From a virus (Duplodnaviria > Heunggongvirae > Uroviricota > Caudoviricetes): DNA of 33,823 bases. The position numbers and the translations under genes are program-made. This document shows, one piece after another, positions 1 through 25,000 of the stretch; position 1 is the stretch's first letter; the number at the start of each line of letters is the position of its first letter. Under the pieces are notes generated by a model that was not told the origin of the DNA, ran no database searches, and was given only the letters and a program-made list of their open reading frames with translations. The stretch is taken from IMG/VR virus record IMGVR_UViG_2877251553_000003; one strand, 5' to 3'.

Positions 1-624
1 CTAGCGTGCGCCTGTGCTTAAGCATATCTTAACTACCAGTGCCAGAATTGGGTCCTGACGTTTGCAATCAGCCAGCAATTCAACAATCTGCTCATGGGTA
101 AGCCATGCCATCTCTTTTTCTGCGATGGTGAATTTTCGCATGTTCTCCAGTGGGTTCGGATACGACCATTCGCCCAGACGGGATAGTTCGCTAAAAACAC
201 TACTTAGATAGCTTTGCTCCAGGTTAATGGTGACCGGGCTTGCTCCTTTCTTCCATTTCTCGCTGAAGTAGATCTCGCCTGTCAGGCGTTTATCTCGATA
301 GTGGGCAAACATTTTAGAGGTGAGATCGGTTGCAAGAGGATTGCCCAGAGCGTCAACCATCAACAGCAATTTGTCATAGACATGCTGCCCAGCTGTCAGA
401 GATTTACCATGTAGTTTGAACCATAGCTCAACCACGTCTTTCAGTGTTCGACGATCCACTGATTCACCCAGCCAGGGCTTTGCTTCGGTTTCTTCCATCG
501 TGTGGCGCTCAAAAGCCAGTGCTTCGCCTTTGGTGGCGAATTGTTTACGCACACGACGCCCACTTCGTCCGGCAGGGTAACATTCGCAAAGCCATTTCCC
601 AGTGGTGAGTTTTCGTACTGCCAT
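1..624 (-). pseudogene. int: P2-family tyrosine integrase, N-terminal ~207 aa only; ORF stops at an in-frame TAG (positions 1-3) straight after the conserved CLSTGAR motif
   Basis: Translation from the ATG at 624 reads MAVRKLTTGKW...ILALVVKICLSTGAR; P2 Int continues with W after this motif and is ~335 aa, so most of the catalytic domain is absent or lies beyond a premature stop. The track ORF starting at 780 is an upstream over-extension. Confidence 0.7.
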
Positions 625-2156: not shown

Positions 2157-2360
2157 TGAAGTGGCACACTGAATTTGGCCACCTGAACAGAGGTGATATG
2201 CTCACCTCAGAACAACACAGGTGCTCCAATGAAAAAAAGAAATTTTAGCGCAGAGTTTAAACGCGAATCCGCTCAACTGGTTGTTGACCAGAAATACACG
2301 GTGGCGGTGATGCTGCCAACTTACTGATTTAGTGTATGATGGTGTTTTTGAGGTGCTCCA

Positions 2361-2636
2361 GTGGCTTCTGTTTCTATCAGCTGTCCCTCCTGTTCAGCTA
2401 CTGACGGGGTGGTGCGTAACGGCAAAAGCACTGCCGGACATCAGCGCTATCTCTGCTCTCACTGCCGTAAAACATGGCAACTGCAGTTCACTTACACCGC
2501 TTCTCAACCCGGTACGCACCAGAAAATTATTGATATGGCCATGAATGGCGTTGGATGCCGGGCAACTGCACGCATTATGGGCGTTAGCCTCAACACGATT
2601 TTACGTCACTTAAAAAACTCAGGCCGCAGTCGGTAA
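2361..2636 (+). CDS. insA: IS1 InsA
   Basis: 91-aa [25 protein letters not shown]... with the zinc-finger-like CxxC...CxxC. Confidence 0.9.
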
Positions 2637-2680
2637 CCTCGCGCATACAGCCGGGCAGTGACGTCATCGTCTGCGCGGAA

Positions 2681-4174
<1,494 letters not shown>

Positions 4175-4182
4175 CCACTTCA

Positions 4183-6278: not shown

Positions 6279-6349
6279 GTAAGCGTACAGCCTGAACCGT
6301 CTGGTCAGAATCTGACGAATTAGACAAAGTGGTGTCCACCAAATAAGTA

Positions 6350-6750
6350 GTGGGAACCAAAGTGTCAGATATGCAGAAAAATGTGAATCCCGGCAGGCGA
6401 AAAGGCTGCCCTAATTATCCTCCCGAATTTAAACAGCAGCTCGTTGCTGCCTCCTGTGAACCCGGGATATCCATCTCAAAACTTGCTCTTGAAAATGGCA
6501 TTAACGCCAATCTGTTGTTCAAATGGCGACAACAATGGCGCGAGGGAAAGCTGCTATTACCTTCTTCAGAGAGCCCCAGCTACTTCCTGTGACTCTCGAT
6601 GCAGCTGCCGAACAGCCAGAATCGCTCGCAGAGGATCCGGAAACCCTCAGTATCAGCTGTGAGGTAACGTTCCGGCACGGGACGCTCCGCTTCAATGGCA
6701 ATGTCAGCGAAAAGCTCCTGACTCTGCTGATACAGGAACTGAAGCGATGA
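6350..6750 (+). CDS. tnpA: IS66-family TnpA (orf1); frame break in a C-run near 6574-6577
   Basis: Two overlapping track ORFs (6350-6592, 6523-6750) read as one protein if one C is added; start uncertain (GTG 6350 or ATG 6371). Confidence 0.7.
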
Positions 6751-7094
6751 TCCCGTTACCTTCCGGGACCAAAATTTGGCTGGTTGCCGGTATCACCGAT
6801 ATGAGAAATGGCTTCAACGGCCTGGCGGCAAAGGTGCAGACGACGCTGAAAGACGCTCCGATGTCAGGTCACGTTTTTATCTTCCGTGGGCGTAATGGCA
6901 GTCAGGTAAAGCTCCTCTGGTCTACCGGCGATGGACTGTGTCTGCTGACCAAACGGCTGGAGCGCGGCCGCTTCGCCTGGCCGTCAGCCCGGGATGGCAA
7001 AGTGTTCCTCACACCGGCACAGCTGGCGATGCTCCTTGAAGGTATCGACTGGCGGCAGCCTAAAAGACTGCTTACGTCCCTGACTATGTTGTAA
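6747..7094 (+). CDS. tnpB: IS66-family TnpB (orf2)
   Basis: 115-aa ORF MIPLPSGTKIWLVAGITDMRNGFNGLA... overlapping the tnpA stop (ATGA). Confidence 0.8.
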   Translation: MIPLPSGTKIWLVAGITDMRNGFNGLAAKVQTTLKDAPMSGHVFIFRGRNGSQVKLLWSTGDGLCLLTKRLERGRFAWPSARDGKVFLTPAQLAMLLEGIDWRQPKRLLTSLTML

Positions 7095-7142
7095 GCCTCT
7101 TTATCCTGGTCGACGCTGAATGAGCCTGGTAATATACCCGGT

Positions 7143-8680
7143 ATGAGCAGCTCACTTCCTGACGATATCAATGCACTGAAACGTCTCCTTGCCGAACAGG
7201 AGGCGCTGAACCGTGCCCTGCTGGAAAAGCTGAACGAGCGTGAACGCGAAATAGACCATCTGCAGGCACAGCTGGATAAGCTGCGCCGGATGAACTTCGG
7301 CAGCCGCTCCGAAAAAGTCTCCCGTCGTATCGCACAGATGGAAGCTGACCTGAAGGCACTTCAGAAAGAAAGTGATACCCTTACCGGTCGGGTTGACGAC
7401 CCGGCCGTGCAGCGCCCGCTGCGTCAAACCCGCACCCGCAAACCGTTCCCCGAATCACTCCCCCGCGATGAAAAACGGCTGCTGCCGGCAGCGTCATGCT
7501 GCCCGGAATGTGGAGGCTCACTGAGCTATCCGGGTGAGGATGCCGCCGAACAGCTGGAGTTGATGCGCAGCGTCTTCCGGGTTATCCGGACTGTACGTGA
7601 AAAGCATGCCTGTACTCAGTGCGATGCCATCGTGCAGGCCCCGCGCCTTCACGGCCCATCGAGCGGGGTATCGCAGGACCGGGGCTGCTGGCCCGCGTGC
7701 TGATCTCAAAGTATGCAGAGCACACCCCGCTGTACCGCCAGTCTGAAATGTACGGCCGCCAGGGCGTGGAGCTGAGTCGTTCACTGCTGTCGGGCTGGGT
7801 GGATGCATGCTGCCGGCTACTGTCACCGCTGGAAGAAGCGCTTCAGGACTATGTGCTGACTGACGGTAAGCTCCATGCTGATGACACGCCTGTCCCGGTG
7901 CTGTTGCCAGGCAATAAGAAAACGAAGACCGGGCGGTTATGGACCTACGTTCGTGACGACCGTAACGCCGGGTCAACGCTGGCGCCGGCGGTGTGGTTCG
8001 CTTACAGCCCGGACAGAAAAGGCATCCATCCGCAGACCCATCTTGCGGGGTTCAGTGGTGTACTGCAGGCGGATGCATACGCCGGGTTCAACGAGCTGTA
8101 CCGGGATGGCCGGATAACGGAAGCCGCCTGTTGGGCTCACGCCCGCCGTAAAATCCACGATGTGCACGTTCGCACCCCGTCAGCCCTGACGGAGGAAGCG
8201 CTGAAACGGATCGGCGAACTGTACGCCATCGAGGCAGAGATAAGGGGAATGACGGCGGAGCAGCGCCTTGCCGAACGTCAGTTGAAAACGAAACCGCTGC
8301 TGAAATCCCTGGAAAGCTGGCTGCGTGAAAAGATGAAAACCCTGTCGCGACACTCAGAACTGGCGAAAGCGTTCGCATACGCCCTGAACCAGTGGCCGGC
8401 GCTGACGTACTATGCAGATGATGGCTGGGCTGAGGCGGACAATAATATCGCTGAAAATGCGTTGCGGATGGTCAGTCTGGGCCGCAAAAACTACCTGTTC
8501 TTCGGTTCGGATCATGGAGGAGAGCGGGGAGCGCTGCTGTACAGCCTGATCGGGACGTGCAAACTGAACGGAGTGGAGCCAGAAAGCTACCTCCGCTATG
8601 TACTTGACGTCATAGCCGACTGGCCGATAAACCGGGTCGGCGAACTGCTCCCCTGGCGCGTAGCACTGCCGACTGAATAA
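7143..8680 (+). CDS. tnpC: IS66-family transposase TnpC (orf3); frame break near 7638-7647
   Basis: Track ORFs 7143-7703 and 7619-8680 join into one ~510-aa protein (leucine-zipper N-terminus, CxxC...CxxC, DDE region) with a single-base correction. Confidence 0.75.
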
Positions 8681-8725
8681 CACATCCCCGTCAATACGGT
8701 TCTTGCTGCACGCTTACCATTGACG

Positions 8726-10493: not shown

Positions 10494-12142
10494 ATGTTAG
10501 TCAAGAAAAATAAAAATTATAGTTTATATTTTTTAATTACAAATAATCAACAGATATCTGATTCTGGTAATTATATAAAAATAGTCCCATCAAGAAGCGA
10601 TTGGAATGATTTTGGATATTTGAGTAGAGTCGAAATATCTATTTTTAATAAAAAAGAGTGTAAGGATATAATTTCACTGAATGGTTATATTGGTTTTTTG
10701 AATTCAGAGGAGGAACGAAATGGAAAAGCAGAACTGATAAGGCGAGTGAAAAAAAAGGAAGAATCTAATTTAAAGGATGAGGGGTTTAATGATTATTTTG
10801 TCATGCTTCAGGATATGAATAATTATCGAAGACTAGTAAGATTTTTTGGGGTGAATGAATCCAAATATATATTAAATTTCATTAATGATGTTGTTTCTAA
10901 GAAAAGTGACGCTAGTGCAGAGAATTTGAGGAAAAAAGCAATCTCTTCTGATATCTTTAATAAATCTTTCATTAGAGAGTCTGAGTCGTATTTTACTTTC
11001 AAAAATGCAGGAACAGTTCTTTCCGGTATTCAATATGAGGAGTTGGGTAATTTATCACAGCACATCAAGATTAGCTATTCGAATAAAGTTAATGAAGAAG
11101 ATGTATCTTATGTTTTTAATTTTGATCACGAGCATGATTTACCAAAAAGAATTTCCATAATTATAGGCGAGAATGGTGTAGGAAAAAGCCAAACGCTTAG
11201 AGAAATCGCATTGGCTGCGATTAAAGGAAAGGATAATTTGGTGGCTGTAGTTGATTCTAACGGTGTGAGCATTGAAGAACGAATTCAAATTAGTAGGCTC
11301 ATTGCTTTTTCTCCAACAAATGAAAGTAAGTGTTCATTTCCAACCGATAAAAGAATAAAATCATTGATATGGTACAAAAGATTGACTTTAAATCGTGAAT
11401 CAAAATCCAAATTAAACTTGAATGATTTAATAGTGCAACTAGCGAGGAGTAACGACGCTATCGGCTATAATCAAAGGTGGAATATATTTGTTGATGCACT
11501 GAGTGTTCTAAATAGTAACAACGATTTAGTAATCAAATGTGGCGGTGAAAATTCACCATTTGTTAAATTAAATGAGCTTAATTCTCGAGGCGAAGAATCT
11601 AGACTATCATTATATTCTGAAATTATTCTCTCTGGCGAGCCTTTGAGGCTTATTGAAAATAAATGTTACCCTTTGAGTAGTGGGAAATATCGTTTATTAA
11701 GTTTTGTGTACAAGTTTGTTTGTATATTGAGAATGGGACTCTTCTATTAATAGATGAGCCAGAAACACATCTCCATCCTTCATTTATTAATAAATTTATG
11801 GCATTGCTTGATAATTTATTAGAAAAGACAGGCTCTTCAGCTATCATAGCAACGCATTCGGTTTATCTTGTTCGGGAGGTTTTTAAGGAGCAAGTGACAA
11901 TACTCAGAAGACGAGATGATGGGGTAATTGTTAGCGAAAAACCGAGATTGAGTACTTTTGGGGCGAATATAGGAAATATCTCATATTTTGTTTTCGGTGA
12001 GAGTGAACCAACTCAAATTTTAAATAAAGTAAAAAACAATATAATTGCAAAGAATATGTCTTGGGATGATGTTGAATCTAAATATAGCGAGGACTTATCA
12101 CTTAATGTATTAACTGCGTTGAGAAATGAAATGGGCAATTGA
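10494..12142 (+). CDS. ABC-type (AAA_15/AAA_21-like) ATPase of a candidate defence module, with a ~200-aa N-terminal extension; one frame break near 11715-11722
   Basis: Walker A IIGENGVGKSQ (about aa 213), LSSG signature, Walker B LLLIDEPE, H-loop ATHS; track ORFs 10494-11750 and 11720-12142 join if one T is restored in gtttgtttg; strong RBS GAGAGGG; very AT-rich. Confidence 0.8.
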
Positions 12143-12143
12143 A

Positions 12144-13007
12144 ATGAATAAATTAAAAAGACCTGTTTTTAAAGATTATTCTGCATTTAAAAAACTATCT
12201 GCAAATAAGAGATTAAAACATCATTCTGTTCTGAATGGACAGGATACATTTATACTTAATGCATATAGATCGTACATAAAGAATAAAGGGTATCTTAATG
12301 TCAATTCTTGTGGCGTATTGAGTAACAATATTGCTGAAGCTTTGAGATATTATTATAACAATCCCGCAAAGTGTTTATCTATAATTGATGATATAAGAGC
12401 AGCTAATTCTAACTCTCTATGTCCAATGTGTGGTTCAATGCATAGCGGGACTTTGGATCATGTTTTACCCAAGGAAAACTATCCAGAATTTTCTTTATTC
12501 ACTAAGAATTTGGTTCCTGCTTGCAAATGTAATACTTTCAAAAGTACTACTATAGCTAATTCTGCAGGCCATCGGATGCTGCATCCATATTTTGATAATA
12601 TATTAAAACAAAGATTAATATGTGCTAATTTTTCTAAATTAGGGCGAACACCTACAATTGATGTAAAAATCATAATTGACCCAATGTCACCAGAATATAA
12701 CAATGTTAAGTATCATCTTGATAATGTTGTTATCAAGAATAATATTAAGGGGTATTTGTCTGAACAATGGGAGTCGTTTTACTTATATCCTGAGCTTGTT
12801 ATTAGAGGACTGAATAAGAGTCTTTCTACTTATAGCGATGTATATGAGTTGTTGACTCGCGAGTTGTTGCTGTTGGATGAAAAACATAAAGGTAAAAATA
12901 ATTGGAATTCGGTTTTTGTAGCTGGGTTAATTCGACCTGATGTGATTAGGTGGATACTCTGTGAATTACATTTAGGTAACAGAAGTCCAGACGGTCGTCT
13001 CATATGA
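12144..13007 (+). CDS. HNH-family endonuclease, partner of the upstream ATPase
   Basis: CPMCGS...LDHVLPKENYP...NLVPACKCN fits the HNH pattern (CxxC, DH, N, CxC); starts right after the ATPase stop (alternative overlapping ATG at 12126). Confidence 0.75.
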   Translation: MNKLKRPVFKDYSAFKKLSANKRLKHHSVLNGQDTFILNAYRSYIKNKGYLNVNSCGVLSNNIAEALRYYYNNPAKCLSIIDDIRAANSNSLCPMCGSMHSGTLDHVLPKENYPEFSLFTKNLVPACKCNTFKSTTIANSAGHRMLHPYFDNILKQRLICANFSKLGRTPTIDVKIIIDPMSPEYNNVKYHLDNVVIKNNIKGYLSEQWESFYLYPELVIRGLNKSLSTYSDVYELLTRELLLLDEKHKGKNNWNSVFVAGLIRPDVIRWILCELHLGNRSPDGRLI

Positions 13008-13017
13008 TTTTTTGCAT

Positions 13018-13043
13018 CTTCAGCGTGTATCTGCACGCTGAAG
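13018..13043 (+). terminator. Perfect 10-bp inverted-repeat hairpin downstream of the HNH gene (possible terminator; weak T-tract)
   Basis: CTTCAGCGTG-tatctg-CACGCTGAAG. Confidence 0.4.
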
Positions 13044-13114
13044 AAATTCATAAAAACTGCTGCCTATTAATAAATTTTTTTAGCTGAGTTAAAGAACCTC
13101 ATTTAGTGATTACG

Positions 13115-14148
13115 TTAAGTAGCTAGTTTATAACTATCAAATTTAACAATGTTCTCACTTACCAATTTATTTATTTCCATCATTCTTTTTTGTAACGGTA
13201 TTAACTCGTTACGTACAAACACCAGGCTCGCCTTCTCCACATCCCCAAACCCCCGACATTATTAGGCATAATCCCCATCATTTGCGGTGGCACACGATGC
13301 GCCGCCATCATGTCATCCCGGCTCACGTTCTTGATGTTCAGAAACTCATCCTTCGCCGCGACTTCTGACAACGGGATGATCTGAAGCCCGTCCTTTTTGC
13401 CGTTAGGCGAGTACATAAACAGATTGCGGAAGTTACCTGGTCCTTTGGCGCTTTTCATCGCATTGCGGAGGTTGTTCACATCCTCCTGGTTTTGCGCGGC
13501 ATCGGTCATGTACATGATGAAGCCTGCATGACTGCCGTTAATGTAATACTATCGGCGGAACAGCGTGGCGGACTCGTTGAGCAGGGCTGACGGAATGGCA
13601 GAAAGGTAACCTGGCAGGCCGTAGATCTCTTGGTTGATGTCCGGTTCCATCAGATGAAAGATGCTTCCTTTCGTGAACTGATACGGCTGCGTGGTCATGC
13701 CGTATTGCACAAACCAGTAGGTATCCAGGTCTAATCCGCGTCGGGTGTATTTTGCCAGAGCAGGCTCAAGAGCGATGACCTATCCGAACCGGTTTGTGCG
13801 TTTCTCCAGGTAAGCGTTACCAAATACCAGATAATCCTGCACAAAACGTGAAAAAGCCTGCTGGCTGAGCAGCGGGTGAGGGATGTAGGTACTGATCAGA
13901 ATGTTGCATTTCACCGCAATTGGTGAACTGTGATGCACGGCGGCGCGGAAGGTGCGCGCCAGTCCGTCAAAACTCACTGGCGGCTCATACCAGCGATCTG
14001 TCTGTACGCATTCCACATAGTCCAGTAGTTCACGGCGGTCCAGAACCGGAACGGGATCGCCGAAGCTGAATGCTTCGGCTGAAGTCTGGTTTTTATGCTG
14101 GGTCTGTTTCGTCGCCGCAGCGCGGTTCTTCTTACTCTTTCCCATCAA
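13115..14148 (-). pseudogene. Q: P2 gpQ-type portal protein with two in-frame TAG codons and one C-terminal frame break
   Basis: MMGKSKKNRAAATKQ... N-terminus; TAG at 13780-13782 and 13549-13551 (as the reverse complement of cta) in the same frame as the flanking segments; a frame change near 13251-13260 extends the ORF to about 13115. Confidence 0.8.
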
Positions 14149-15910
14149 AAAATCTCCACAATATTGCTGGTATTGGCGGACTCGCCCTGCAGCGGTTCGT
14201 TAAACAGTGCGTGCATTGTTGCCCAGGCCAGATCGGCATGGCTGGCTTCTTCGCTGCGGCTGGCTTCATAGGTCGGGCGGTTGCCGCTGGCGGTGGTGGC
14301 GCGACGGATTGCCATGAATGACTGCGCAATGTCGGTGTGCCCGGCGTCAAACTCAAGACGGCGGTGGCTGATAATGTCGTAGGCCTTGAGTACCAGGGCG
14401 TTTTTAACGTTGGGGTTGTAGACAAACTCCCGGACGGCAGGAAAAAACGCTTTCACGTTCTCGTAAACCCGTGACCAACGCCGGTTGAGTCGATGCCGAT
14501 ATAGGTCACGTTGTACTGTTCAGTCAGTTTTTTGATGGCGTAAGCCTGGGCGCGAAAGTCCATTCCGCGCCACTGGTGACGCTCAAGAATGCGGAACTTA
14601 CCGCCTGGCACGGCTGGCGGTGCCACCACCACGCATCCGGCGCTGTCGCCGTTCTGCGTACCTTTTGCCGGGTCATAACCGATCCACACTTCGCGCCAGC
14701 CAAACGGGCGCAGGGCCAGTGCATGAAAGTCGGTCCAGACTTCCCAGCTGTCCACCATGCACGCCTGCAATTCGCTGAGCGGGAACACGGACGCGAGATC
14801 GTCCACGAACTCGCACATCAGCAGGTTCTGGTATTCGTCAGGGCTGTACTCCATGCGCAACTGGTCAAGGTCGAACAGGTTACAGGCGCCGCGCACCGCA
14901 TCTTCCACGGTGACTATCTGGCGGTATTGCCCGTCTGCGCACAGCAGGCCGGGGGCCAGATTGCTGTGGGACAGGTCGATGTCCACCTTGTCAGCTTTGT
15001 TGCGCCCACGGTTGAACAGCGCACCGGACCAGAACGGATAAGCACTGTGGGTCAGACTGGATGGTGTGGAAAAATAGGTCTGCCGCCATTTCTTGTGAAT
15101 AGCCATACCAGAAGCCACTTTGCGTAGCTCCTGAAATTTCGGTATCCAGAAATATTCATCCAGATACAGGTTACCGTGATAACTCTGGGCAGTGCGGGCA
15201 TTGGTGCCGAGGAAATACAGTGTGGCCCCGTTGGGAAGCACCATCGGATCGCCTTTCAGCTCCACCTCCACTTCTTTGGCAAAGTCGATGATGTACTGTT
15301 TGAAGACGTGGGCCTGTGCCTTACTGGCAGAAAGGAAAATCTGGTTACGTCCGGTAAGCAGGGCGTCAATCAGGGCTTCACGGGCAAAATAGAAGGTCGC
15401 GCCGATCTGGCGTGACTTCAGCAGGTTGCGGATGCGGTTGGTTTTTCCGGCTTCCCACCAGTGGCGCTGGTAGTTGAACATGGAGGAATGGAAATTTTTT
15501 TCCAGCTTCTCAATCTGGTCATCGGTGAAAACATTCTTTTCAGGCTGACGGCGTGGGCCTTTGTTGCGGTTGGCGACGTTAGGGTTTAAGTCGGCTTCGT
15601 TGCCGCCATTGTTAAACTTGCCGATCCGCGCGTGGCGCTCAGACTGGCGCGCCAGCAGGTCAATATCTTTGAAATCTTTCCCTTCTTTGTGCTCCTTCAT
15701 GATGAGCTGGCAGTAGCGTGCGGCGGTGGTGAGCTGCATCTGATCCAGAGGCCCATAGTCACCCCACTTGTCGCGTTTTTTCCAGCTGTAAACGGTTGCA
15801 ACTTTCTCGCCCAGCATTTCAGCAATGCGGGCTACGCGGTATCCCTGAAAGTACAGCAGCATGGCCTGCCGACGGGGATCGAGATCTGCGGGTGTCAGTG
15901 TGGTGTTCAT
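14145..15910 (-). CDS. P: P2 gpP-type terminase large subunit; single frame break near 14468-14470
   Basis: Track ORFs 14453-15910 and 14145-14456 join as ...IGIDSTGVGHG|VYENVKAFFPAVREF... if one G is restored. Confidence 0.85.
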
Positions 15911-15946
15911 GGCACAAACCTACAGCCTTGAATGAAGGCTTTCCCC

Positions 15947-15964
15947 GCCTGCGGTTTGTGTGGT
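15947..15964. promoter_or_regulatory. TGT-N12-ACA dyad (P2 late-activator/Ogr box) in the divergent P/O late promoter region
   Basis: TGTgtggttgtcggtACA about 90 bp upstream of the O start codon. Confidence 0.5.
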
Positions 15965-16052
15965 TGTCGGTACAAATACCGCGCATTGTTTCACTGCCCC
16001 TATCACCGCAACCATAAGGCTCCAGTAAGTTTTTTCTAACGGAGCACGGCTC

Positions 16053-16886
16053 ATGACAGTGAAAGCAAAGCGTTTTCGCATCGGGGTGGAAGGTGCCACC
16101 ACCGACGGACGCGAAATCCAGCGTGAATGGCTGGAACAGATGGCAGCCAGCTATAACCCGGCGGTGTATACCGCGCTGATTAACCTTGAGCACATCAAGT
16201 CTTATCTGCCGGACAGCACCTTTAACCGCTACGGCAAGGTGACGGCGCTGTTTGCTGAAGAAATCACGGAAGGTCCGCTGGCAGGCAAGATGGCGCTGTA
16301 TGCTGACGTTGAGCCAACGGAGTCCCTGGTGGAACTGGTGAAAAAAGGCCAGAAATTATTCACCTCTATGGAAGTCAGCCCGAAGTTCGCTGATACGGGC
16401 AAAGCCTACCTGGTCGGCCTGGCTGCCACTGATGACCCTGCCAGTCTGGGCACTGAAATGCTGACATTCAGCGCCAGTGCAGCCCATAACCCGCTGGCAA
16501 ACCGCAAGCAGAATCCCGCCAATCTCTTTACCGCCGCAGAGGAAACGGTGATCGAACTGGAAGAAGTCCAGGACGACAAACCGTCCCTGTTTGCCCGCGT
16601 CACGGCGCTGTTTACCAAAAAAGAGCAGTCCGATGACGCCCGGTTCTCTGATGTGCATAAGGCCGTGGAGCTGGTCGCCACTGAGCAGCAGAACCTGAGC
16701 GCACGCACCGAAAAATCCCTGTCTGAGCAGGAAGAACGCCTGTCTGAGCTGGAGACTGCCCTGCAGGCACAGCAAACCGCCTTTAACGAACTGGTGGACA
16801 AGCTGAGTCATGAAGACAGCCGCCAGGACTACCGCCAGCGTGCAACAGGCGGTAACGCCCCCGCTGACACTCTGACCAATTGCTGA
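16053..16886 (+). CDS. O: gpO capsid scaffolding protein
   Basis: 277-aa ORF in the P2 position after divergent P; acidic coiled-coil C-terminal half. Confidence 0.85.
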   Translation: MTVKAKRFRIGVEGATTDGREIQREWLEQMAASYNPAVYTALINLEHIKSYLPDSTFNRYGKVTALFAEEITEGPLAGKMALYADVEPTESLVELVKKGQKLFTSMEVSPKFADTGKAYLVGLAATDDPASLGTEMLTFSASAAHNPLANRKQNPANLFTAAEETVIELEEVQDDKPSLFARVTALFTKKEQSDDARFSDVHKAVELVATEQQNLSARTEKSLSEQEERLSELETALQAQQTAFNELVDKLSHEDSRQDYRQRATGGNAPADTLTNC

Positions 16887-16902
16887 TGGAGCACAAAACC
16901 TG

Positions 16903-17961
16903 ATGAAGAAGAATACCCGCTTTGCTTTTAACGCTTACCTGCAGCAACTGGCGCGTCTGAACGGTGTGGCAGTTGAAGAACTGTCCAGCAAGTTCACCGT
17001 AGAGCCGTCCGTGCAGCAGACGCTGGAAGACCAGATCCAGCAGTCCGCCGCTTTCCTGACTCTGATTAACGTCACGCCAGTGACTGAGCAGTCCGGTCAG
17101 CTGCTGGGGTTGGGAGTTGGCAGCACCATTGCCGGAACCACTGATACCACTGCGAAAGAGCGTGAACCTGTCGATCCGACGCTGATGGTCGATGTGGAAT
17201 ATAAATGCGAGCAGACCAACTTTGACACGGTGCTGACCTACGCGAAGCTGGACCTGTGGGCGAAGTTTCAGGATTTTCAGGTGCGTATCCGTGACGCCAT
17301 CGTGAAACGTCAGGCACTGGACCGCATCATGATCGGCTTTAATGGCGTGAAGCGTGCGAAAACCTCCAACCGTAGCGAAAACCCGCTGCTGCAGGATGTG
17401 AATAAAGGCTGGCTGCAGAAAATCCGTGAGGATGCACCGGATCACGTCATGGGCAGCACCACCACGGGCGGTGAAACCACACCGGGCGCAGTGAAAGTCG
17501 GGAAAGGTGGCGAATATGCCAACCTGGACGCCGTGGTGATGGATGCCGTCAATGAGCTTATCGACGTGGTCTACCAGGACGATGACGATCTGGTGGTGAT
17601 TTGCGGTCGTGAACTGCTGTCTGACAAGTATTTCCCGCTGGTCAACAAAGAGCAGGAAAACAGTGAAAAACTGGCTGCCGATATGATCATCAGTCAGAAA
17701 CGCATGGGTGGCCTGCAGGCCGTGCGTGCGCCGTTCTTCCCGCCGAATGCGCTGCTGATCACCCGTCTGGATAACCTGTCCATCTACTGGCAGGAAGACA
17801 CCCGCCGCCGTTCAGTTATCGACAACCCGAAACGTGACCGGATTGAAAACTTTGAATCCGTTAACGAAGCCTATGTGGTTGAGGACTACCGCTGCGCCGC
17901 ACTGGTGGAAAACATCCAGATTAGTGATTTCAGCGCCGCCGCAGCCGAAACCGGAGCGTAA
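16903..17961 (+). CDS. N: gpN major capsid protein
   Basis: 352-aa ORF with extensive similarity to P2 gpN as recalled (RFAFNAYL, FNGVKRA, VGKGGEYANLDA). Confidence 0.9.
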   Translation: MKKNTRFAFNAYLQQLARLNGVAVEELSSKFTVEPSVQQTLEDQIQQSAAFLTLINVTPVTEQSGQLLGLGVGSTIAGTTDTTAKEREPVDPTLMVDVEYKCEQTNFDTVLTYAKLDLWAKFQDFQVRIRDAIVKRQALDRIMIGFNGVKRAKTSNRSENPLLQDVNKGWLQKIREDAPDHVMGSTTTGGETTPGAVKVGKGGEYANLDAVVMDAVNELIDVVYQDDDDLVVICGRELLSDKYFPLVNKEQENSEKLAADMIISQKRMGGLQAVRAPFFPPNALLITRLDNLSIYWQEDTRRRSVIDNPKRDRIENFESVNEAYVVEDYRCAALVENIQISDFSAAAAETGA

Positions 17962-17964
17962 TCC

Positions 17965-18615
17965 ATGAGCCTGAGTCCCGCACGGCAGCATCGCCTGCGC
18001 GTTCAGGCTGAACAGGCCGCCCGTGAGGGTGGCAGTGTTCGCCACGCATCGGGCTATGACCTGATGCTGCTGCAACTGGCGGAAGACCGCCGCCGTCTCA
18101 AGGGCGTTCAGTCCACGGTCAAAAAAGCGGAAATCAAAGTGGAGCTGCTGCCGAAGTACGCCGCCTGGGCGGAGGGTGTCCTGGCTGCCGGAGGCGCTCA
18201 ACAGGATGACGTGCTGATGTACGTGATGTTGTGGCGCATTGATGCCGGAGATTATGCCGGGGCGCTGGAGATCTGGCGTCATGCCCTGCGTCATGGATGG
18301 GTGATGCCGCTGGGCAACCGCAACGTGCAGACCGTGCTGACAGAGGAAATGGCAGATGCAGCGCAGAGCGCAATGCTTGCCGCCACCGGCTTTGATGCCG
18401 ATCTGTTGCTGCAGACGCTGGAGCTGACAGACGGTCTGGATATGCCGGACCAGTCACGGGCACGTCTGCATAAAGCGATTGGCGCGGTCCTGAGTGAAAG
18501 CAATCCGGCTTCCGCCCTTAATCATCTCAACCATGCGTTACAGCTCGATCCCCGCTGTGGCGTGAAAAAAGACAAACAGCAGCTGGAGCGCAGACTGCGC
18601 AATGACAGCCGCTGA
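17965..18615 (+). CDS. M: gpM terminase small subunit
   Basis: 216-aa ORF similar to P2 gpM (QDDVLMYVMLWRID, LELTDGLDMPD). Confidence 0.8.
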   Translation: MSLSPARQHRLRVQAEQAAREGGSVRHASGYDLMLLQLAEDRRRLKGVQSTVKKAEIKVELLPKYAAWAEGVLAAGGAQQDDVLMYVMLWRIDAGDYAGALEIWRHALRHGWVMPLGNRNVQTVLTEEMADAAQSAMLAATGFDADLLLQTLELTDGLDMPDQSRARLHKAIGAVLSESNPASALNHLNHALQLDPRCGVKKDKQQLERRLRNDSR

Positions 18616-18710
18616 CAGAACGTGCCCCCGCGCACGGGCGGCACGGGGTGGCGAAAGGCACAGCCACATCAAAACCCCGTCCACCGCCCTTTATTTCAGG
18701 AGAAAGCAGC

Positions 18711-19157
18711 ATGAAGTTTGTTGCGCCAGAACAGGCACCGGAACAGGCGGAAATCATTAGAAATACGCCGTTCTGGCCTGATGTGGACCTGTCGGAGTTT
18801 CGCAGTGTCATGCGCACTGACGGCACGGTGACGCAGCCGCGTTTAAAGTAGGTTGCACTGTCGGCAATTTCGGAGGTTAACGCAGAGCTGTATGAATTTC
18901 GCAGACGCCAGCAGATGCTGGGGTATGCGTCGGAACAGCTGGACGGGAAAAGTGAGCGCATTCAGCACTATTTCAACGCGGTTTACTGCTGGGCTCGCGC
19001 CATGCTCAACGAACGTTTCCAGGACTATGACGCCACGGCATCCGGTGCGAAGCGGGGCGAAGAACTGGCGGAAGCAAGCGGTGATTTGTGGCGTGACGCC
19101 CGCTGGGCCATCAGCCGGGTGCAGGACGCGCCGCACTGCACAGTGGAGCTTATCTGA
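18711..19157 (+). pseudogene. L: gpL head completion protein with an in-frame TAG at 18849-18851
   Basis: MKFVAPEQ... and ...NAELYEFRRRQ...CTVELI lie in the same frame either side of the TAG; RBS GGAGAAAG before the ATG. Confidence 0.75.
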
Positions 19158-19360
19158 TGAAAGTGCGTGCGCATCAGTATGACACGGTGGACGCGCTTTG
19201 CTGGCGTCATTACGGGCGCACGCAGGGTGTCACGGAGCAGGTACTGAAGGCAAATCCGGGGCTTGCCGAATACGGCCCCTTTGTACCTCACGGGCTGCAG
19301 GTGGAGCTGCCGGACATTCCGACCACCACCACCGTGCAGACCGTCCAGCTATGGGACTGA
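19157..19360 (+). CDS. X: gpX tail protein X
   Basis: 67-aa ORF similar to P2 gpX (DTVDALCWRHYGRT, ANPGLAE). Confidence 0.8.
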   Translation: MKVRAHQYDTVDALCWRHYGRTQGVTEQVLKANPGLAEYGPFVPHGLQVELPDIPTTTTVQTVQLWD

Positions 19361-19363
19361 ATT

Positions 19364-19579
19364 ATGACGCTTGAGCGAATCAGCGCCTTTATCACGTATT
19401 GCATCGCCGTCGTGCTGGCCTGGCTGGGCGATTTGTCCATCAAGGATGCCTCAACGCTGGGCGGCCTGATGATTGGTGTGCTGATGCTGGCTATCAACTG
19501 GTACTACAAACACAAAGCCTACCAGCTTCTGCGCGACGGGCAGATCTCGCGGGAGGACTATGAATCCATCAATCGTTAA
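19364..19579 (+). CDS. Holin (small two-TM membrane protein)
   Basis: 71 aa, two hydrophobic segments, charged C-terminus, directly before the endolysin. Confidence 0.55.
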   Translation: MTLERISAFITYCIAVVLAWLGDLSIKDASTLGGLMIGVLMLAINWYYKHKAYQLLRDGQISREDYESINR

Positions 19580-20072
19580 ACGCTGCCTTGTCGGGGCCGT
19601 GCTGGCTATTGCTGCCACGCTGCCGGGTTTTCAGCAGCTTCACACCTCCGTGGAGGGACTGAAACTGATTGCCGATTACGAAGGTTGTCGTCTGCAGCCG
19701 TATCAGTGCAGCGCGGGTGTCTGGACCGACGGTATTGGTAATACGTCGGGCGTCATTCCCGGCAAAACCATTACGGAGCGACAGGCAGCAGAAGGGCTGA
19801 TCTCCAACGTGCTGCGTGTGGAGCGGGCGCTTGAAAGGTGTGTGAAGCAACAGCCGCCGCAGAAGGTGTATGACGCTGCGGTGTCGTTTGCCTTCAACGT
19901 GGGTACGGGCAATGCCTGCAGTTCCACGCTGGTGAAATTGCTCAATCAGCGGCGCTGGGCGGATGCGTGCCGACAGTTGCCGCGCTGGGTTTATGTGAAA
20001 GGTGTTTTTAATCAGGGGCTGGATAACCGCCGTGCGCGGGAGATGGCCTGGTGTTTACAGGGAGCAAACTGA
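19560..20072 (+). CDS. Endolysin (lysozyme-type, with N-terminal signal-anchor)
   Basis: N-terminal hydrophobic segment then EGLKLIADYEGCRLQPYQCSAGVWTDGIGNT (lysozyme catalytic region pattern). Confidence 0.8.
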   Translation: MNPSIVKRCLVGAVLAIAATLPGFQQLHTSVEGLKLIADYEGCRLQPYQCSAGVWTDGIGNTSGVIPGKTITERQAAEGLISNVLRVERALERCVKQQPPQKVYDAAVSFAFNVGTGNACSSTLVKLLNQRRWADACRQLPRWVYVKGVFNQGLDNRRAREMAWCLQGAN

Positions 20073-20073
20073 A

Positions 20074-20451
20074 ATGAAAAAGAAATTAATCAGCGGGCTG
20101 TTTCTGATGTTATGGATGGCGCTGTTAATCGCAGCAATAGTGTATCCGCAGGGGATTTTTCCGGTACTGGCAGCGTCCGGCGTTTGGGTAGCCTGTTTAC
20201 TGACATGGGCGGTAATTCCGGTAGCACTGGCTTCGTTAATTAAGAATGGCCCGCTCTGGCAGGAGTTGAGGGCATCTTTACTGAAGACAATTACCCGAAA
20301 AGAAAACGTATTTATCAGCTGGGTGATACGATTGCTGATTGTCGTCAGTCTCGCCTGGACGGGGTGGGCCATTACCCTGGTCTTTTATCTGCTGACCGTT
20401 ATTGCCTTCTGGATCACCCGTAATCAGATGGCGCAACAGGTAGCCGCATGA
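20074..20451 (+). CDS. lysA: LysA-like membrane protein
   Basis: About 125 aa with four hydrophobic segments in the P2 lysA position. Confidence 0.6.
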   Translation: MKKKLISGLFLMLWMALLIAAIVYPQGIFPVLAASGVWVACLLTWAVIPVALASLIKNGPLWQELRASLLKTITRKENVFISWVIRLLIVVSLAWTGWAITLVFYLLTVIAFWITRNQMAQQVAA

Positions 20452-20876
20452 ACCGGTTGCTGCTGGTTGTGCTGGCGTTATTATTGGCGGCGCTGGGCTG
20501 GCAGACGTGGCGGCTGGCTGATGCCAGCCAGACCATCAGCACGCAGGCAGACGAGCTGCAGAGCAAAAGCCAGGCACTGGCAAAGAGCAACAGCCAGCTT
20601 ATCAGCCTGTCCATTCTGACTGAAACCAATAACCGGGAGCAGGCGCGGCTCTATGCCGAAGCAGAACAGACCAGTGTACTGCTGAGACAACGACAACGCC
20701 GGATTGAGGAACTGAAACGTGAGAACGAGGATTTACGTCGCTGGGCTGATACTCCTTTGCCTGCTGACATTATCCGGCTGCGGGAACGTCCGGCACTCAC
20801 CGGAGGTGCAGCTTACCGTCAGTGGTTGTCCGCGAGTGACGCCGTGTCGGCTGGAGCAGGCAGCGCCGCGCACTAA
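20448..20876 (+). CDS. lysB: LysB (Rz-like i-spanin)
   Basis: N-terminal TM then coiled-coil; overlaps lysC. Confidence 0.7.
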   Translation: MNRLLLVVLALLLAALGWQTWRLADASQTISTQADELQSKSQALAKSNSQLISLSILTETNNREQARLYAEAEQTSVLLRQRQRRIEELKRENEDLRRWADTPLPADIIRLRERPALTGGAAYRQWLSASDAVSAGAGSAAH

Positions 20877-21009
20877 CGGTGATCTGAATGCGTTGCTGGA
20901 TGAAACGGAGGCCGCCTGGGCGGTCTGTGCAGACAAAGTGGACATGATTATTGCGTGTCAGGAGCGAAATAGTGAACAAACCACAATCCCTGCGCCACGC
21001 CCTCAATAA
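20719..21009 (+). CDS. lysC: LysC (Rz1-like o-spanin lipoprotein)
   Basis: Lipobox LTLSGC, Pro-rich, begins inside lysB in another frame. Confidence 0.7.
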   Translation: MRTRIYVAGLILLCLLTLSGCGNVRHSPEVQLTVSGCPRVTPCRLEQAAPRTNGDLNALLDETEAAWAVCADKVDMIIACQERNSEQTTIPAPRPQ

Positions 21010-21403
21010 AGCAGTGCCTTATGTCCGTAATAACCCGGACAAACTGCATCTGTTTGTGGATAACGGTTCGCTGGTTGCCTCCGGGGCTAGCTCCATGTCA
21101 TGGGAGTACCGCTACACCCTGAACGTGGTGATTGAAGATTTCAGCGGCGACCAGAATCTGCTGATGGCCCCGGTTTTGCTGTGGCTGCGGGATAACCAGC
21201 CCGATGCGATCAATAACCCGGCGTTACGGGAAAAGCTATTCACCTTTGAGGTGGATATTCTGCGCAACGATGTCTGTGATATCAGCCTTAACCTGCAACT
21301 GACGGAGCGTGTGCTGGTCAGCACTGACGGCAGTGTGTCGAACGTTGAAGCGGTAGCGGAACCTGATGAACCTGAAGAAATGTGGACGGTGAAACGTGGC
21401 TGA
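20972..21403 (+). CDS. R: gpR tail completion protein
   Basis: Similarity to P2 gpR (FVDNGS, RYTLNVV, WLRDNQPD); GTG start at 20972 preferred over TTG at 20951. Confidence 0.75.
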   Translation: MNKPQSLRHALNKAVPYVRNNPDKLHLFVDNGSLVASGASSMSWEYRYTLNVVIEDFSGDQNLLMAPVLLWLRDNQPDAINNPALREKLFTFEVDILRNDVCDISLNLQLTERVLVSTDGSVSNVEAVAEPDEPEEMWTVKRG

Positions 21404-21792
21404 ATTGCAGAAGGTGGACGACTGGCTGAGTGCATTATTGGCGAATCTGGAGCCAGCCGCAAGAAGCCGCATGATGCGCCAGCTGGCGCAGGAACTGCGC
21501 CGGACACAGCAGCAGAATATCAGGATGCAGCGCAATCCAGATGGCAGCAGTTATGAGCCGCGCAGGGTAACAGCACGCAGCAAAAAGGGGCGCATCAAAC
21601 GTCAGATGTTTACAAAGCTGCGCACCACAAAATACCTGAAAACTGCAGCCAGCGCCGATTCTGCCAGCGTACAGTTTGAAGGTAGGGTGCAGCGCATTGC
21701 CCGTATTCACCATTACGGCTTGAGTGATCGCGTCAGTCGAAAAGGTATTTATACCATCTATGCGAAAAGGCAGTTATTAGGTTTTAATGTCC
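21396..21792 (+). pseudogene. S: gpS tail completion protein, 3'-truncated by IS1 copy 2
   Basis: PAARSRMMRQLA...QQQNIRMQRNPDGS matches P2 gpS; the ORF stop is created inside the IS1 end. Confidence 0.75.
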
Positions 21793-21847
21793 GGTAATGC
21801 TGCCAACTTACTGATTTAGTGTATGATGGTGATTTTAAGGTGCTTGC

Positions 21848-22123
21848 GTGGCTTCCATTTCCATCAGATGTCCTTCCTGCTCCGCTATTGAAGGCGTGGT
21901 GCGTAACGGCAAAAGAACTGCCGGACATCAGCGCTATCTCTGCTCTCATTGCCGTAAAACATGGCAACTACAGTTCACTTACACCGCCTCTCAGCCCGGT
22001 ACGCACCAGAAAATCATTGATATGGCCATGAATGGCGTCGGATGTCGCGCCAGTGCACGCATTATGGGCGTTGGCCTCAACACGGTTTTACGTCACTTAA
22101 AAAACTCAGGCCGCAGTCGGTAA
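21848..22123 (+). CDS. insA: IS1 InsA
   Basis: 91 aa, 8 substitutions relative to the copy-1 InsA. Confidence 0.9.
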
Positions 22124-22167
22124 CCTCGCGCATACAACCGGGCAGTGATGTGATTGTCTGCGCTGAA

Positions 22168-22545
22168 ATGGACGAACAGTGGGGCTACGTCGGTGCTAAA
22201 TCACGTCAGCGCTGGCTGTTTTACGCGTATGACAGGATACGGAGGACGGTTGTGGCGCACGTCTTCGGTGAACGCACTCTGGCCACACTGGAGCGTCTTC
22301 TGAGCCTGCTGTCGGCCTTTGAGGTCGTGGTATGGATGACGGATGGCTGGCCGCTGTATGAATCACGCCTGAAGGGAAAGCTGCACGTTATCAGCAAGCG
22401 TTACACTCAGCGCATTGAGCGACATAATCTGAATCTGAGACAACATCTGGCAAGGCTGGGACGGAAGTCACTGTCGTTCTCAAAATCGGTGGAGCTGCAT
22501 GACAAGGTCATCGGGCATTATCTGAACATAAAACACTATCAGTAA
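22168..22545 (+). CDS. insB: IS1 InsB
   Basis: [16 protein letters not shown]... in the same position within the element as in copy 1. Confidence 0.85.
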
Positions 22546-22560
22546 GTTGGCAGCATTACC

Positions 22561-23038
22561 ATGCAGCCCTCACAATATAGTTAAAAGCGACATTTCGTGG
22601 GCGTGTTTCATTCGCACCTGCAGGTTTAGTCGTTGCCGCAACAACACCACCCTCTGTAATAGCCGGGTTGGGAATTGGGTAATTATCGAAGTCAATGGCC
22701 GGAGACAGGGGCGTGATTTGTTTTAAAATCGTGGTGCCTGTAAAACTTTCCAGAGTCTGGTCGTTAGTTCGTGAAGTCCAGATTCCCCAATAGTGGTTAT
22801 GACTGACAATCGCACCGTCCTGAAGCGTTAATAATCCCCTTCCGTTATCCACTCCACGTCCGTCATCCCAGCCACGAATAAACTCACCGCGTAAATCAGG
22901 CAATTTATTTGTCGGGTAAGCCTTTGCCAGTTCCGGGTATTCTTCAGCAGAAAAAGCCGCACCATTGCATTTCAGCCAGCCTGTCGGCGGAGTGGCTGAA
23001 GGCCACGGAACAGGCACACCAACAGGTAATGCAGAGCC
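22561..23038 (-). pseudogene. Tail-fibre C-terminal variable domain (alternative, inverted copy) with no attached constant region
   Basis: PWPSATPPTGWLKCNGAAFSAEEYPELAKAYP...ETRPRNVAFNYIVRAA is the conserved tail-fibre C-terminal pattern (P2 H / Mu S type); begins at the crossover site and abuts IS1. Confidence 0.65.
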
Positions 23039-23064
23039 TTCTCCCAAACCAACGTTTAAGAAAA
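23039..23064. other. Gin/Hin/Cin/Pin-type 26-bp recombination crossover site
   Basis: TTCTCCCAAACC-AA-CGTTTAAGAAAA fits the half-site pattern (TTnTCnnAAACC / GGTTTnnGAnAA) next to the invertase gene. Confidence 0.5.
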
Positions 23065-23119
23065 TGCAGAGATAATGGCTAACTGGCATCATCCCCGGTT
23101 TTTATTCAGGGGATTGATC

Positions 23120-23685
23120 ATGCTTATTGGCTATGTACGCGTGTCAACAAATGACCAGAACACCGATTTGCAACGTAATGCACTGAACTGCGCGGGATGT
23201 GAGCGGATTTTTGAGGATAAAATCAGTGGCACTAAGCCCGACAGACCGGGGCTTAAAAAACTGCTCAGGACACTATCGGCAGGAGACACGCTGGTTGTCT
23301 GGAAGCTGGACAGACTGGGACGCAGTATGCGGCATCTTGTTACGCTGATAGAAGAGTTGCGCCAGCGTGGTGTGAATTTCCGAAGCCTGACTGACAGTAT
23401 TGATACCAGTACCCCAATGGGCCGTTTCTTTTTTCACGTCATGGGGCTCTGGCTGAAATGGAACGTGAACTGATAGTTGAACGTACCAGAGCAGGGCTGG
23501 CTGCAGCTCGTGCCAAAGGCAGAGTAGGTGGACTCCGTCCTAAGTTGACCACCGAACAGTGGGCACAGATTGGACGTTTACTCGAGGCCGGAGAATCAAG
23601 ACAGCGTATTGCACTGATTTTTGATGTGGGCGTTTCTACCATTTATAGAAAATTTCCGGCGAATGAGAGCAATGAATCGCCCTGA
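23120..23685 (+). CDS. pin: Pin/Gin/Hin-family serine DNA invertase; frame break in a G-run near 23444-23447
   Basis: MLIGYVRVSTNDQNTDLQRNAL...VVWKLDRLGRS...FFFHVMG|ALAEMERELIVERT... nearly identical in pattern to E. coli Pin as recalled. Confidence 0.85.
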
Positions 23686-23733
23686 GTCAGTATTATTTTG
23701 ATTTTTCCTGTAAGCGGACAAATACCGTCATTT

Positions 23734-23751
23734 TGTGTGAATAACGACACA
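23734..23751. promoter_or_regulatory. TGT-N12-ACA late promoter box upstream of FI
   Basis: TGTgtgaataacgacACA about 80 bp upstream of the FI ATG. Confidence 0.5.
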
Positions 23752-23827
23752 ACTGCGCTTAGCTGTTTGTCAGGCACAATCACTTCAACATAGGGCGAAG
23801 CCTAATCCAATCAGGAGGTTCGCCACT

Positions 23828-25000
23828 ATGGCTCAGGATTACCACCACGGGGTGCGCGTTGTTGAAGTCAACGAAGGCACCCGATCCATTACCACGGTGA
23901 GCACCGCCATCGTGGGTATGGTCTGCACGGGCGATGATGCCGATGCAAAAATGTTTCCTCTTAATAAACCTGTGCTGATCACTGATGTGCTGACCGCCAG
24001 CGGTAAAGCGGGTGAGTCTGGCACGCTGGCCCGTTCGCTGGATGCCATCGCTGACCAGGCAAAACCCGTGACCGTTGTTGTGCGTGTGCCGCAGGGTGAA
24101 ACGGAAGAAGAAACCACAACCAATATCATTGGCGCAGTGACCGCCGAGGGTAAAAAAACAGGTATGAAAGCCCTGTTATCTGCCCAGTCACAGCTCGGCG
24201 TTAAACCGCGCATTCTCGGCGTGCCAGGTCACGACACGAAGGCGGTAGCTACTGAGTTGCTGAGCGTGGCGCAAAGCCTGCGTGGATTTGCTTACCTGTC
24301 AGCGTATGGTTGCAAGACGGTGCAGGAAGCAATCACTTACCGTGAAAACTTCAGTCAGCGTGAAGGAATGCTGATCTGGCCCGACTTTACTGGCTGGGAC
24401 ACGGTGCTGAATGCCGAAGCAACGGCTTATGCCACCGCCCGTGCGCTCGGTCTGCGCGCTAAAATTGATGAGCAGACCGGATGGCACAAAAGCCTGTCCA
24501 ACGTGGGCGTGAACGGTGTCACCGGAATTTCTGCTGATGTGTTCTGGGATCTGCAGAACCCGGCAACCGATGCAGGTCTGCTTAACCAGAACGATATCAC
24601 CACGCTTATCCGCAAAGACGGTTTCCGCTTCTGGGGTTCCCGCTGTCTGAGCGATGATCCGCTCTTTGCCTTCGAAAACTACACCCGCACGGCGCAGGTG
24701 CTGATGGACACGATGGCAGAAGCGCACATGTGGGCGGTGGACAAACCGCTGAACCCGTCGCTGGCCCGCGACATTATCGAAGGTATCCGCGCCAAAATGC
24801 GTAGCCTGGTCAGTCAGGGCTATCTCATTGGTGGTGATTGCTGGCTGGACGAGTCGGTGAACGATAAAGACACGCTGAAAGCCGGGAAACTCACCATCGA
24901 TTACGACTACACGCCAGTGCCGCCACTTGAAAACCTGATGCTGCGTCAGCGCATCACCGATCAGTACCTGGTGAATTTCTCCAGCCAGGTCAGCGCGTAA
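23828..25000 (+). CDS. FI: gpFI tail sheath protein
   Basis: 390-aa ORF, P2 FI-like; RBS AGGAGG. Confidence 0.9.

Follow-up and report, generated by a model that had tools for sequence, protein, structure and literature searches.

The 33,823-nt stretch of DNA analyzed here (the window) carries in-frame TAG codons in the portal gene Q and the head completion gene L of a P2-like prophage, and the integrase gene int also ends at a TAG. The locus raises the question of whether these codons record the decay of a prophage, are ambers that a suppressor host could read, belong to a reassigned code, or are errors of the assembly. An exact-protein match places the window in CP026825.1 (GCA_002949915.1), a Shigella chromosome sequenced with PacBio, on which rcdA and ybjL flank the prophage. 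CP026825.1 is part of a block of genomes obtained with PacBio from historical Shigella strains. The same remnant is present in a sister genome, CP026832, which is the PacBio sequence of S. dysenteriae 14 ATCC 49346 (PMC10132075).

Gene order and nucleotide similarity both identify the prophage as P2-like. The genes are arranged int-CI...A...Q-P / O-N-M-L-X-Y-K...FI-FII-E-T-U-D-ogr, with the divergent Q-P and O-N-M-L blocks followed by X, holin, lysozyme, R, S, tail genes, D, and ogr, and with int and the CI repressor at the opposite end. This order is based on the annotation of an intact relative that is 99.4-99.7% identical and on the Pfam families of the called genes (Phage_portal, Terminase_6, Phage_GPO_N, Phage_cap_P2, Phage_term_smal, Phage_GPL, Phage_tail_X, P2_Phage_GpR, Phage_GPD, and Ogr_Delta). 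Across 6.1 kb the window shares 95.7% identity with Escherichia phage Cartapus (Peduoviridae, Elveevirus) and with many P2-like phages of Klebsiella and E. coli, and its nucleotide identity with Peduoviridae phages is 95-96%. Among intact relatives, the closest is found in E. coli UPEC-245U (locus L002). The reading frames of O, N, and M (scaffold, major capsid, and small terminase; 16053-18615, plus strand) are still open.

The original prediction held that each TAG in Q and L is a substitution with homologous sequence continuing in the same frame, and alignment to L002 bears this out; all four TAG codons, the one in int included, lie at the predicted positions. The Q pseudogene (13115-14145, minus strand) starts from an ATG at 14145 and reads MGKSKK...NRFG, a stop, VIALEP...LFRR, a second stop, and YYINGSH...; homology resumes in frame past each stop. 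The first stop is codon 122 (13780-13782, E122, GAG to TAG) and the second is codon 199 (13549-13551, K199, AAG to TAG). Q also carries a one-base C-run deletion at 13250. The L pseudogene (18711-19157, plus strand) has its TAG at codon 47 (18849-18851, Q47, CAG to TAG), after which VALSAISEVN... continues in frame, and it has an 18-bp in-frame deletion at 18930/18931. The N-terminal 207 codons of int (1-624, minus strand) end in ...KICLSTGAR followed by a TAG at positions 1-3, which replaces the TGG of W208. The left edge of the window coincides with this amber, and the C-terminal catalytic part of int is a 103-residue Phage_integrase ORF left of the window in the source genome. All four TAG codons are single-base changes of the L002 sense codon, and the outgroup loci L044 and L001 match L002 at the mutated bases. 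The intact relatives encode Q, L, and int as single ORFs of 343, 154, and 350 residues, and thus the TAG positions are not natural gene boundaries.

Independent assemblies separate mutations of the lineage from features of a single sequence. All independent same-lineage assemblies examined, Illumina drafts and Logan read assemblies among them, carry the int-208, Q-199, and L-47 ambers, and the int TAG is found in 8 of 8 same-lineage loci. Apart from private or sub-lineage SNPs of their own, eight other assemblies differ from window positions 11967-24614 only at 13782 and at three G/C-run deletions, so the Q-199 and L-47 ambers are shared, and Q is called as fragments of 198 and 133 residues in all eight. 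The exact 207-residue int product is indexed in 186 collection blocks and the 46-residue L fragment in 351, unlike the 259-residue longest int ORF, for which an exact look-up returned no record. An exact search across the int amber site matched none of 5426 complete E. coli genomes, and a 36-mer spanning the L amber had no match among the GTDB species representatives. Recurrence in every independent assembly shows that these three ambers are real: int W208am, Q K199am, and L Q47am each had a single origin and have reached fixation throughout the Shigella lineage in which the remnant occurs. The Q-122 TAG is the sole private substitution in the window. All eight other assemblies, each from another strain, have GAG at this codon, and the corresponding 121-residue fragment occurs on one contig only. 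Q E122am, seen in one assembly, is probably a later and private second mutation of an already dead gene.

The window contains 13-14 or more private one-base deletions, all in G/C runs, compared to none in 347 A/T runs of at least 4 bases. The affected G/C runs are at 1027, 6578, 7643, 11682, 13250, 14468, 23443, 25298, 25746, 26530, 28452, 29065, 30130, and 33474, and outside this genome deletions reappear at these sites only in PacBio genomes from the same project. Frameshifts also affect the housekeeping genes ybjM, rlmC, and artJ, in PacBio assemblies only. Because these deletions are private to PacBio assemblies and have a signature typical of the platform, they are almost certainly consensus errors. 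The terminase ATPase gene P (14145-15910, minus strand) illustrates the effect: it is split into 485 and 103 residues by a private one-base C-run deletion at 14468, and since P has 588 residues in the sister assemblies, the split is probably an artifact. The many one-base frameshifts in the window would mostly reflect PacBio homopolymer errors and not biology. The contrast drawn in the original prediction between indels and substitutions stands, in that the substitutions are mostly real, although it missed the reason, which is that most of the indels are probable PacBio artifacts. The abundance of these deletions, some of them in housekeeping genes, and the confinement of the Q E122 TAG to this assembly on a single contig are the observations that would favor reading the TAG codons themselves as errors of a low-quality consensus. 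The independent assemblies refute that reading for the int, Q-199, and L ambers. The error mode of the assembly is homopolymer deletion and not substitution (one private substitution versus at least 14 deletions), and sister strains have 0-10 private SNPs in the same region, which makes one real private SNP unremarkable. There is very little chance that the TAG codons are sequencing errors.

The nonsense codons lie in a prophage with extensive other damage. An IS3-family element (2157-4179) with a nested IS1 (~2320-3073) replaces the C terminus of CII, fil, DUF5347, DUF2732, TraR, and the N terminus of dam of the relative, and an IS66-family element (6280-8717) is inserted in the replication gene A. 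At 21793-23055, an IS1 (~21793-22560) and an inverted tail-fiber fragment (22561-23055) together mark a deletion that took out a DUF5677 cargo gene, V, W, J, I, and most of H/G. The gene set for induction is incomplete: V, W, J, I, and most of H/G are gone, A is split, the early region is replaced, and int, Q, and L carry nonsense codons. The flanking host genes dacC and mdfA are also pseudogenized, a typical Shigella feature. The prophage is dead beyond repair. The IS insertions and the multigene deletion are fixed in the lineage, and therefore read-through of the ambers could not restore function.

Substitutions on the window branch were sorted by coding effect, and there are 11 synonymous, 20 nonsynonymous, and 4 nonsense changes (three plus the one in int), compared to 4 synonymous and 2 nonsynonymous changes on the UPEC branch. 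The synonymous share of 11/35 is close to the ~29% expected under the observed mutation spectrum, which was calculated by hand from class tables. About 1.6 nonsense changes are expected among 35 coding substitutions, and the probability of at least four is 0.07. The substitution pattern fits neutrality. One consideration points to selection at int above all: W208 was struck independently in lineage L027 (TGG to TGA) and here (TGG to TAG), and both events leave the 207-residue N-terminal fragment, as might happen if some of the knock-outs were fixed by selection that locks in or disarms the prophage and not by drift. The recurrence is subject to ascertainment bias, since a look-up of the exact product could find truncations at W208 only. 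TGG has two G to A routes to a stop and G to A is the commonest mutation class, and the synonymous, nonsynonymous, and nonsense counts overall fit neutrality. Selection on these knock-outs is unlikely.

The reading best supported by these results is that the TAG codons are, very probably, ordinary nonsense substitutions that built up under neutrality in the prophage between rcdA and ybjL, a grounded, defective element of P2-like (Peduoviridae) type. None of the four is likely to have a function. The original prediction had offered two readings, decay of the morphogenetic genes by real nonsense mutations and ambers suppressible in a suppressor host. The first is supported because three of the four ambers recur in the lineage, the substitution pattern is neutral, and the element carries IS insertions and a large deletion; the second found no support.

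The observation that every stop is amber is correct, and it is roughly predicted by a mutation spectrum rich in G:C to A:T changes. The expected amber share of nonsense changes is 0.50 with the observed spectrum and 0.41 with a uniform one, giving probabilities of 0.06 and 0.03 for four ambers out of four. A spectrum dominated by G:C to A:T changes, acting on the common CAG and TGG codons, would make TAG the likeliest nonsense product. Against this stands a census of ~60 kb over ~40 lineage loci, which identified seven nonsense substitutions, and all seven are TAG: int, the two in Q, L, D Q49 in CP026828, and the host codons dacC W280 and potH S109, the latter in CP026823. Pooling the seven ambers gives P ~0.002-0.008, a post hoc value, and the three ambers found after the hypothesis was stated give P ~0.07-0.12. 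Three of the seven are transversions (from AAG, GAG, and TCG), classes for which TAA is the likelier product. We regard the amber-only pattern as a curiosity for which the evidence is weak. Deamination at Dcm sites was considered as a common cause and rejected, as none of the four window TAG codons lies in CCWGG (contexts CCAGC, GCAGG, GAAAG, and GGAGAGG). Amber hot spots at Dcm sites, where deamination of 5-methylcytosine converts CCAGG to CTAGG, are known from lacI; the host dacC W280 amber, located just outside the window, is exactly this change, and the four TAG codons of the window differ in lying outside such sites. A general excess of TAG or CTAG creation was also rejected: in a hand count of ~75 substitutions, ~8 gave rise to a TAG or CTA trinucleotide, near the expected number.

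The seven of seven TAG in the ~60-kb neighborhood, two of them in host genes, could also reflect a present or past amber suppressor tRNA or weakened RF1 termination, under which ambers would be nearly neutral and would be fixed preferentially. We consider this origin of the pattern highly improbable. In the corresponding view of the prophage, the Shigella lineage carries or carried a suppressor tRNA that allows ambers to be tolerated or enriched and the genes to be conditionally expressed. The rarity of TAG among natural stops in the intact phage (1 of 30) is in line with this view, and natural isolates of coliforms with amber suppressors have been described; our literature search for natural amber suppressors in Shigella or coliforms returned nothing. 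The four changes are the single-base sense-to-TAG substitutions of an amber-suppressible mutant, but the ancestral residues in the window are W, K, E, and Q, so no single suppressor restores all of them, and adding the S of potH does not produce a set that fits one. ARAGORN detected no tRNA genes within the window. With the baseplate and tail-fiber genes missing and A, the early region, and int disrupted, nothing is left for a suppressor to rescue. In the cox-like gene, rimK, and rcdA, which naturally end in TAG, the stop has not changed, a comparison of three stops with very low power. Neutral decay requires no tolerance mechanism, and the expected amber share is already ~0.5. A suppressor-bearing lineage is thus highly unlikely. 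A reassigned code, in which TAG in late genes encodes an amino acid, would account for in-frame TAG codons in the structural genes Q and L with homology that continues in frame. A TAG-recoded genome would have many TAG codons aligned to one amino acid, in its relatives as well, and a suppressor tRNA, but only four TAG codons are present and they align to four different amino acids. In relatives that are 96-99.7% identical, the ORFs are intact and sense codons stand at these positions, the window has no suppressor tRNA, the host is an enterobacterium that uses the standard code, and one natural phage gene, the cox-like gene, ends in TAG. The sense codons in relatives and the lack of a suppressor tRNA in the window refute recoding, and we assign it a vanishingly small probability.

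Comparison with known systems leads to the same placement. Like the window, the cryptic P2-like prophages of E. coli and Shigella, which undergo reductive decay as IS elements expand, have P2 gene order, 95-99.7% nucleotide identity to intact Peduoviridae prophages or phages, IS1, IS3-family, and IS66-family insertions, deletions, nonsense mutations, and neutral substitutions. There is no essential difference between them and the window, and the only oddity is that the nonsense codons of the neighborhood are so far all TAG. The classical amber mutants of P2 and other phages share single-base sense-to-TAG changes in essential morphogenetic genes (here Q and L), but those are laboratory mutants, whereas the ambers of the window are natural and have become fixed across hundreds of Shigella assemblies, clinical as well as historical. 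The classical mutants are grown on suppressor hosts; the genome in the window is not otherwise intact and suppression cannot restore plaques. Stop-codon-recoded phages also have in-frame TAG codons in late structural genes, but they carry a suppressor tRNA, whereas the window has no tRNA and only a handful of TAG codons, which fall at nonequivalent residues that are sense codons in relatives.

Were the amber-only pattern to extend across the whole genome, it would suggest that a pathogen lineage carries a natural suppressor, a finding of moderate interest; no suppressor is needed to explain the present data. The G/C-homopolymer deletions of one PacBio assembly appear to falsely frameshift P, FII, E, T, U, D, and housekeeping genes. 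The window illustrates how real pseudogenizing mutations, here three fixed ambers, IS insertions, and a deletion, can be separated from platform artifacts, and its value in this respect is to annotation hygiene.

The window contains a P2-like prophage and a short host flank. The portal gene Q starts with an ATG at 14145 on the minus strand and carries one in-frame TAG at codon 122 (13780-13782) and another at codon 199 (13549-13551); downstream of each, the homology to an intact portal is perfect. A TAG at 18849-18851 (codon 47) interrupts the head-completion gene L, whose start is at 18711, and homologous sequence continues in frame after this stop. The integrase (int) fragment ends in CLSTGAR followed by an amber codon, W208, at window positions 1-3. 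These positions and the in-frame homology beyond the Q and L stops are as the original prediction described them. The closest intact relative among complete E. coli genomes is the UPEC-245U prophage (L002), which occupies the same rcdA/ybjL site and is 99.4-99.7% identical to the window across the aligned parts. Base-by-base comparison with this prophage shows sense codons at all four sites, the changes being TGG to TAG at int W208, AAG to TAG at Q K199, GAG to TAG at Q E122 and CAG to TAG at L Q47. Two outgroups, locus L044 and phage Cartapus (L001), match the L002 state at the mutated bases. Q, L and int are each a single ORF in all intact relatives; therefore, the TAG positions are not natural gene boundaries.

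Exact-product look-up assigned the window to CP026825.1, the 4.70-Mb chromosome record of GCA_002949915.1, and the same prophage remnant is present in the neighbouring accessions CP026805 to CP026842. The literature gives CP026832 as S. dysenteriae 14 ATCC 49346 sequenced by PacBio, with a citation of the "59 historical Shigella strains" PacBio data set (PMC10132075). The host flank fits a Shigella lineage: the ybjL variant found there is indexed in 467 collection blocks, whereas no complete E. coli genome comes nearer than 99.7%.

The loci taken from independent same-lineage assemblies centre on M, int, the sheath gene and ybjL/ybjM. Positions 11967-24614 were compared with eight other assemblies, which include Illumina drafts and one Logan read assembly. 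With those assemblies' own private or sub-lineage SNPs set aside, the window differs only by one substitution, C to A at 13782 (Q E122am), and three G/C-run deletions of one base each. All eight therefore carry Q K199am and L Q47am, and their gene calls divide Q into 198 + 133 residues and L into 46 + 80 residues; this 46-residue fragment is indexed in 351 blocks. The int TAG was found in 8 of 8 lineage loci and its 207-residue product is indexed in 186 blocks; 0 of 5426 complete E. coli genomes have an exact match across the int site. Position 13782 is the sole private substitution across the whole window. Nonsense decay, one of the two explanations originally offered, is supported for the three codons common to independent assemblies and is plausible for the fourth, the private Q E122am.

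The original prediction set these substitutions against indels, and those indels are mostly consensus errors. The window has 13-14 one-base deletions that are either private or found elsewhere only in PacBio genomes. Every one lies within a G or C run, whereas the 347 A/T runs of at least 4 carry none. They were listed at window 1027, 6578, 7643, 11682, 13250, 14468, 23443, 25298, 25746, 26530, 28452, 29065, 30130 and 33474, and at 19160, 19318 and 20023 of the fetched locus L051, with PacBio sharing limited to genomes of the same project. P, the invertase gene, FII, the tail assembly protein gene, T, U and D are all broken by them here; these genes are intact in sister assemblies, where the corresponding products are 588 (P), 188 (invertase), 171 (FII), 100 (tail assembly protein), 161 (U) and 366 (D) residues, and T is 1025 or 773+270 residues. 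The housekeeping genes ybjM, rlmC and artJ are frameshifted by the same error type in PacBio assemblies only. The private G/C-homopolymer deletions are almost certainly PacBio consensus errors. Three other indels are real and occur in all or most lineage assemblies: an additional G at 28005 in T, a 12-bp tandem duplication at 964-975 in the small gene adjoining int and, at 18930/18931 in L, an in-frame deletion of 18 bp. The duplication and the L deletion are fixed in the lineage.

Substitutions polarised with the outgroup place 11 synonymous, 20 non-synonymous and 3 nonsense changes, plus int, on the window branch and 4 synonymous and 2 non-synonymous changes on the UPEC branch. Half of the derived spectrum (23/46) is G:C to A:T. 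All possible single-base changes in the coding sequences of the intact relative were enumerated and weighted by this spectrum, under which a coding substitution is nonsense with a probability of 0.045. Among 35 coding substitutions 1.6 nonsense changes are expected, and the probability of at least four is 0.07. TAG is expected to account for 50% of nonsense outcomes under the observed spectrum and 41% under a uniform one, and the probability that all four are amber is 0.06. The expected synonymous share of about 29% (hand calculation) matches the observed 11/35. The prophage has evolved neutrally since its split from the intact relative.

A nonsense census covering about 60 kb (the prophage and both host flanks) in about 40 lineage loci revealed three further nonsense substitutions, all amber. 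D Q49 (CAG to TAG) is found in CP026828 only. W280 of host dacC (PBP6), TGG to TAG at 15549-15551 of locus L033, some 7 kb to the left of the window, is fixed in the lineage and converts the Dcm site CCAGG to CTAGG; the adjoining mdfA is frameshifted. S109 of host potH (TCG to TAG, locus L048 16225-16227) is altered in CP026823 only, among four genomes compared, and divides the permease gene into 108 + 194 residues. CP026828 (L039/L015) has six private substitutions in the region, at window coordinates 18017, 19760, 21968, 23094, 29705 and 30557; all six are C to T on the same strand, one creates D Q49am, and the cluster suggests deamination or a mutagen. The int W208 TAG occurs in the window's lineage and in locus L031, and locus L027 (Logan SRR5943232, a different lineage) has TGG to TGA at the same codon (8622-8624). 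W208 was thus hit twice independently, leaving the same 207-residue N-terminal fragment, a coincidence that may be a by-product of searching by the exact truncated product.

The statement that every stop is amber holds for the four window TAGs and the three census substitutions. The other explanation originally offered was suppression in an amber-suppressor background. As a test set the three census ambers give P of about 0.07-0.12, and all seven pooled give about 0.002-0.008, a post hoc value. The classical Dcm hot-spot mechanism matches a single amber, the one in dacC, which lies outside the window. We regard the amber-only pattern as a curiosity that chance and the mutation spectrum could account for, not as evidence for suppression. 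ARAGORN found no tRNA genes within the window, and CP026825 still ends the cox-like gene, rimK and rcdA at their natural TAG codons. An IS3-family element with a nested IS1 (about 2157-4179) replaces the CII C terminus through the dam N terminus of L002, an IS66-family element (6280-8717) splits gene A, and an IS1 (about 21793-22560) lies at the site from which the cargo gene, V, W, J, I and most of H/G have been lost. Sister assemblies share the IS insertions and this multi-gene loss. Amber read-through therefore could not restore the phage, and suppression is unsupported.

A tail-fibre C-terminal fragment at 22561-23055, next to the invertase gene, has the opposite orientation to that in the intact relative, which would fit the invertible tail-fibre segment being frozen in one state. 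The interval between the DinI-like gene and Q (10494-13007) is a position used for variable defence genes in P2-like phages, and here it holds a candidate two-gene defence system made up of a PtuA-like AAA ATPase with an HNH nuclease (best match PADLOC PDC-M01A/B). In this assembly the ATPase reading frame is broken solely by the G-run deletion at 11682, and gene calls in sister assemblies give the protein at its full 549 residues.

What separates the window from laboratory amber mutants is the fixation of its mutations in hundreds of assemblies, both field and historical. The window differs from recoded phages because it has no suppressor tRNA, its four TAGs fall at four different residues and its relatives have sense codons. 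This is a defective P2-like prophage of a Shigella genome in ordinary IS-driven reductive decay.
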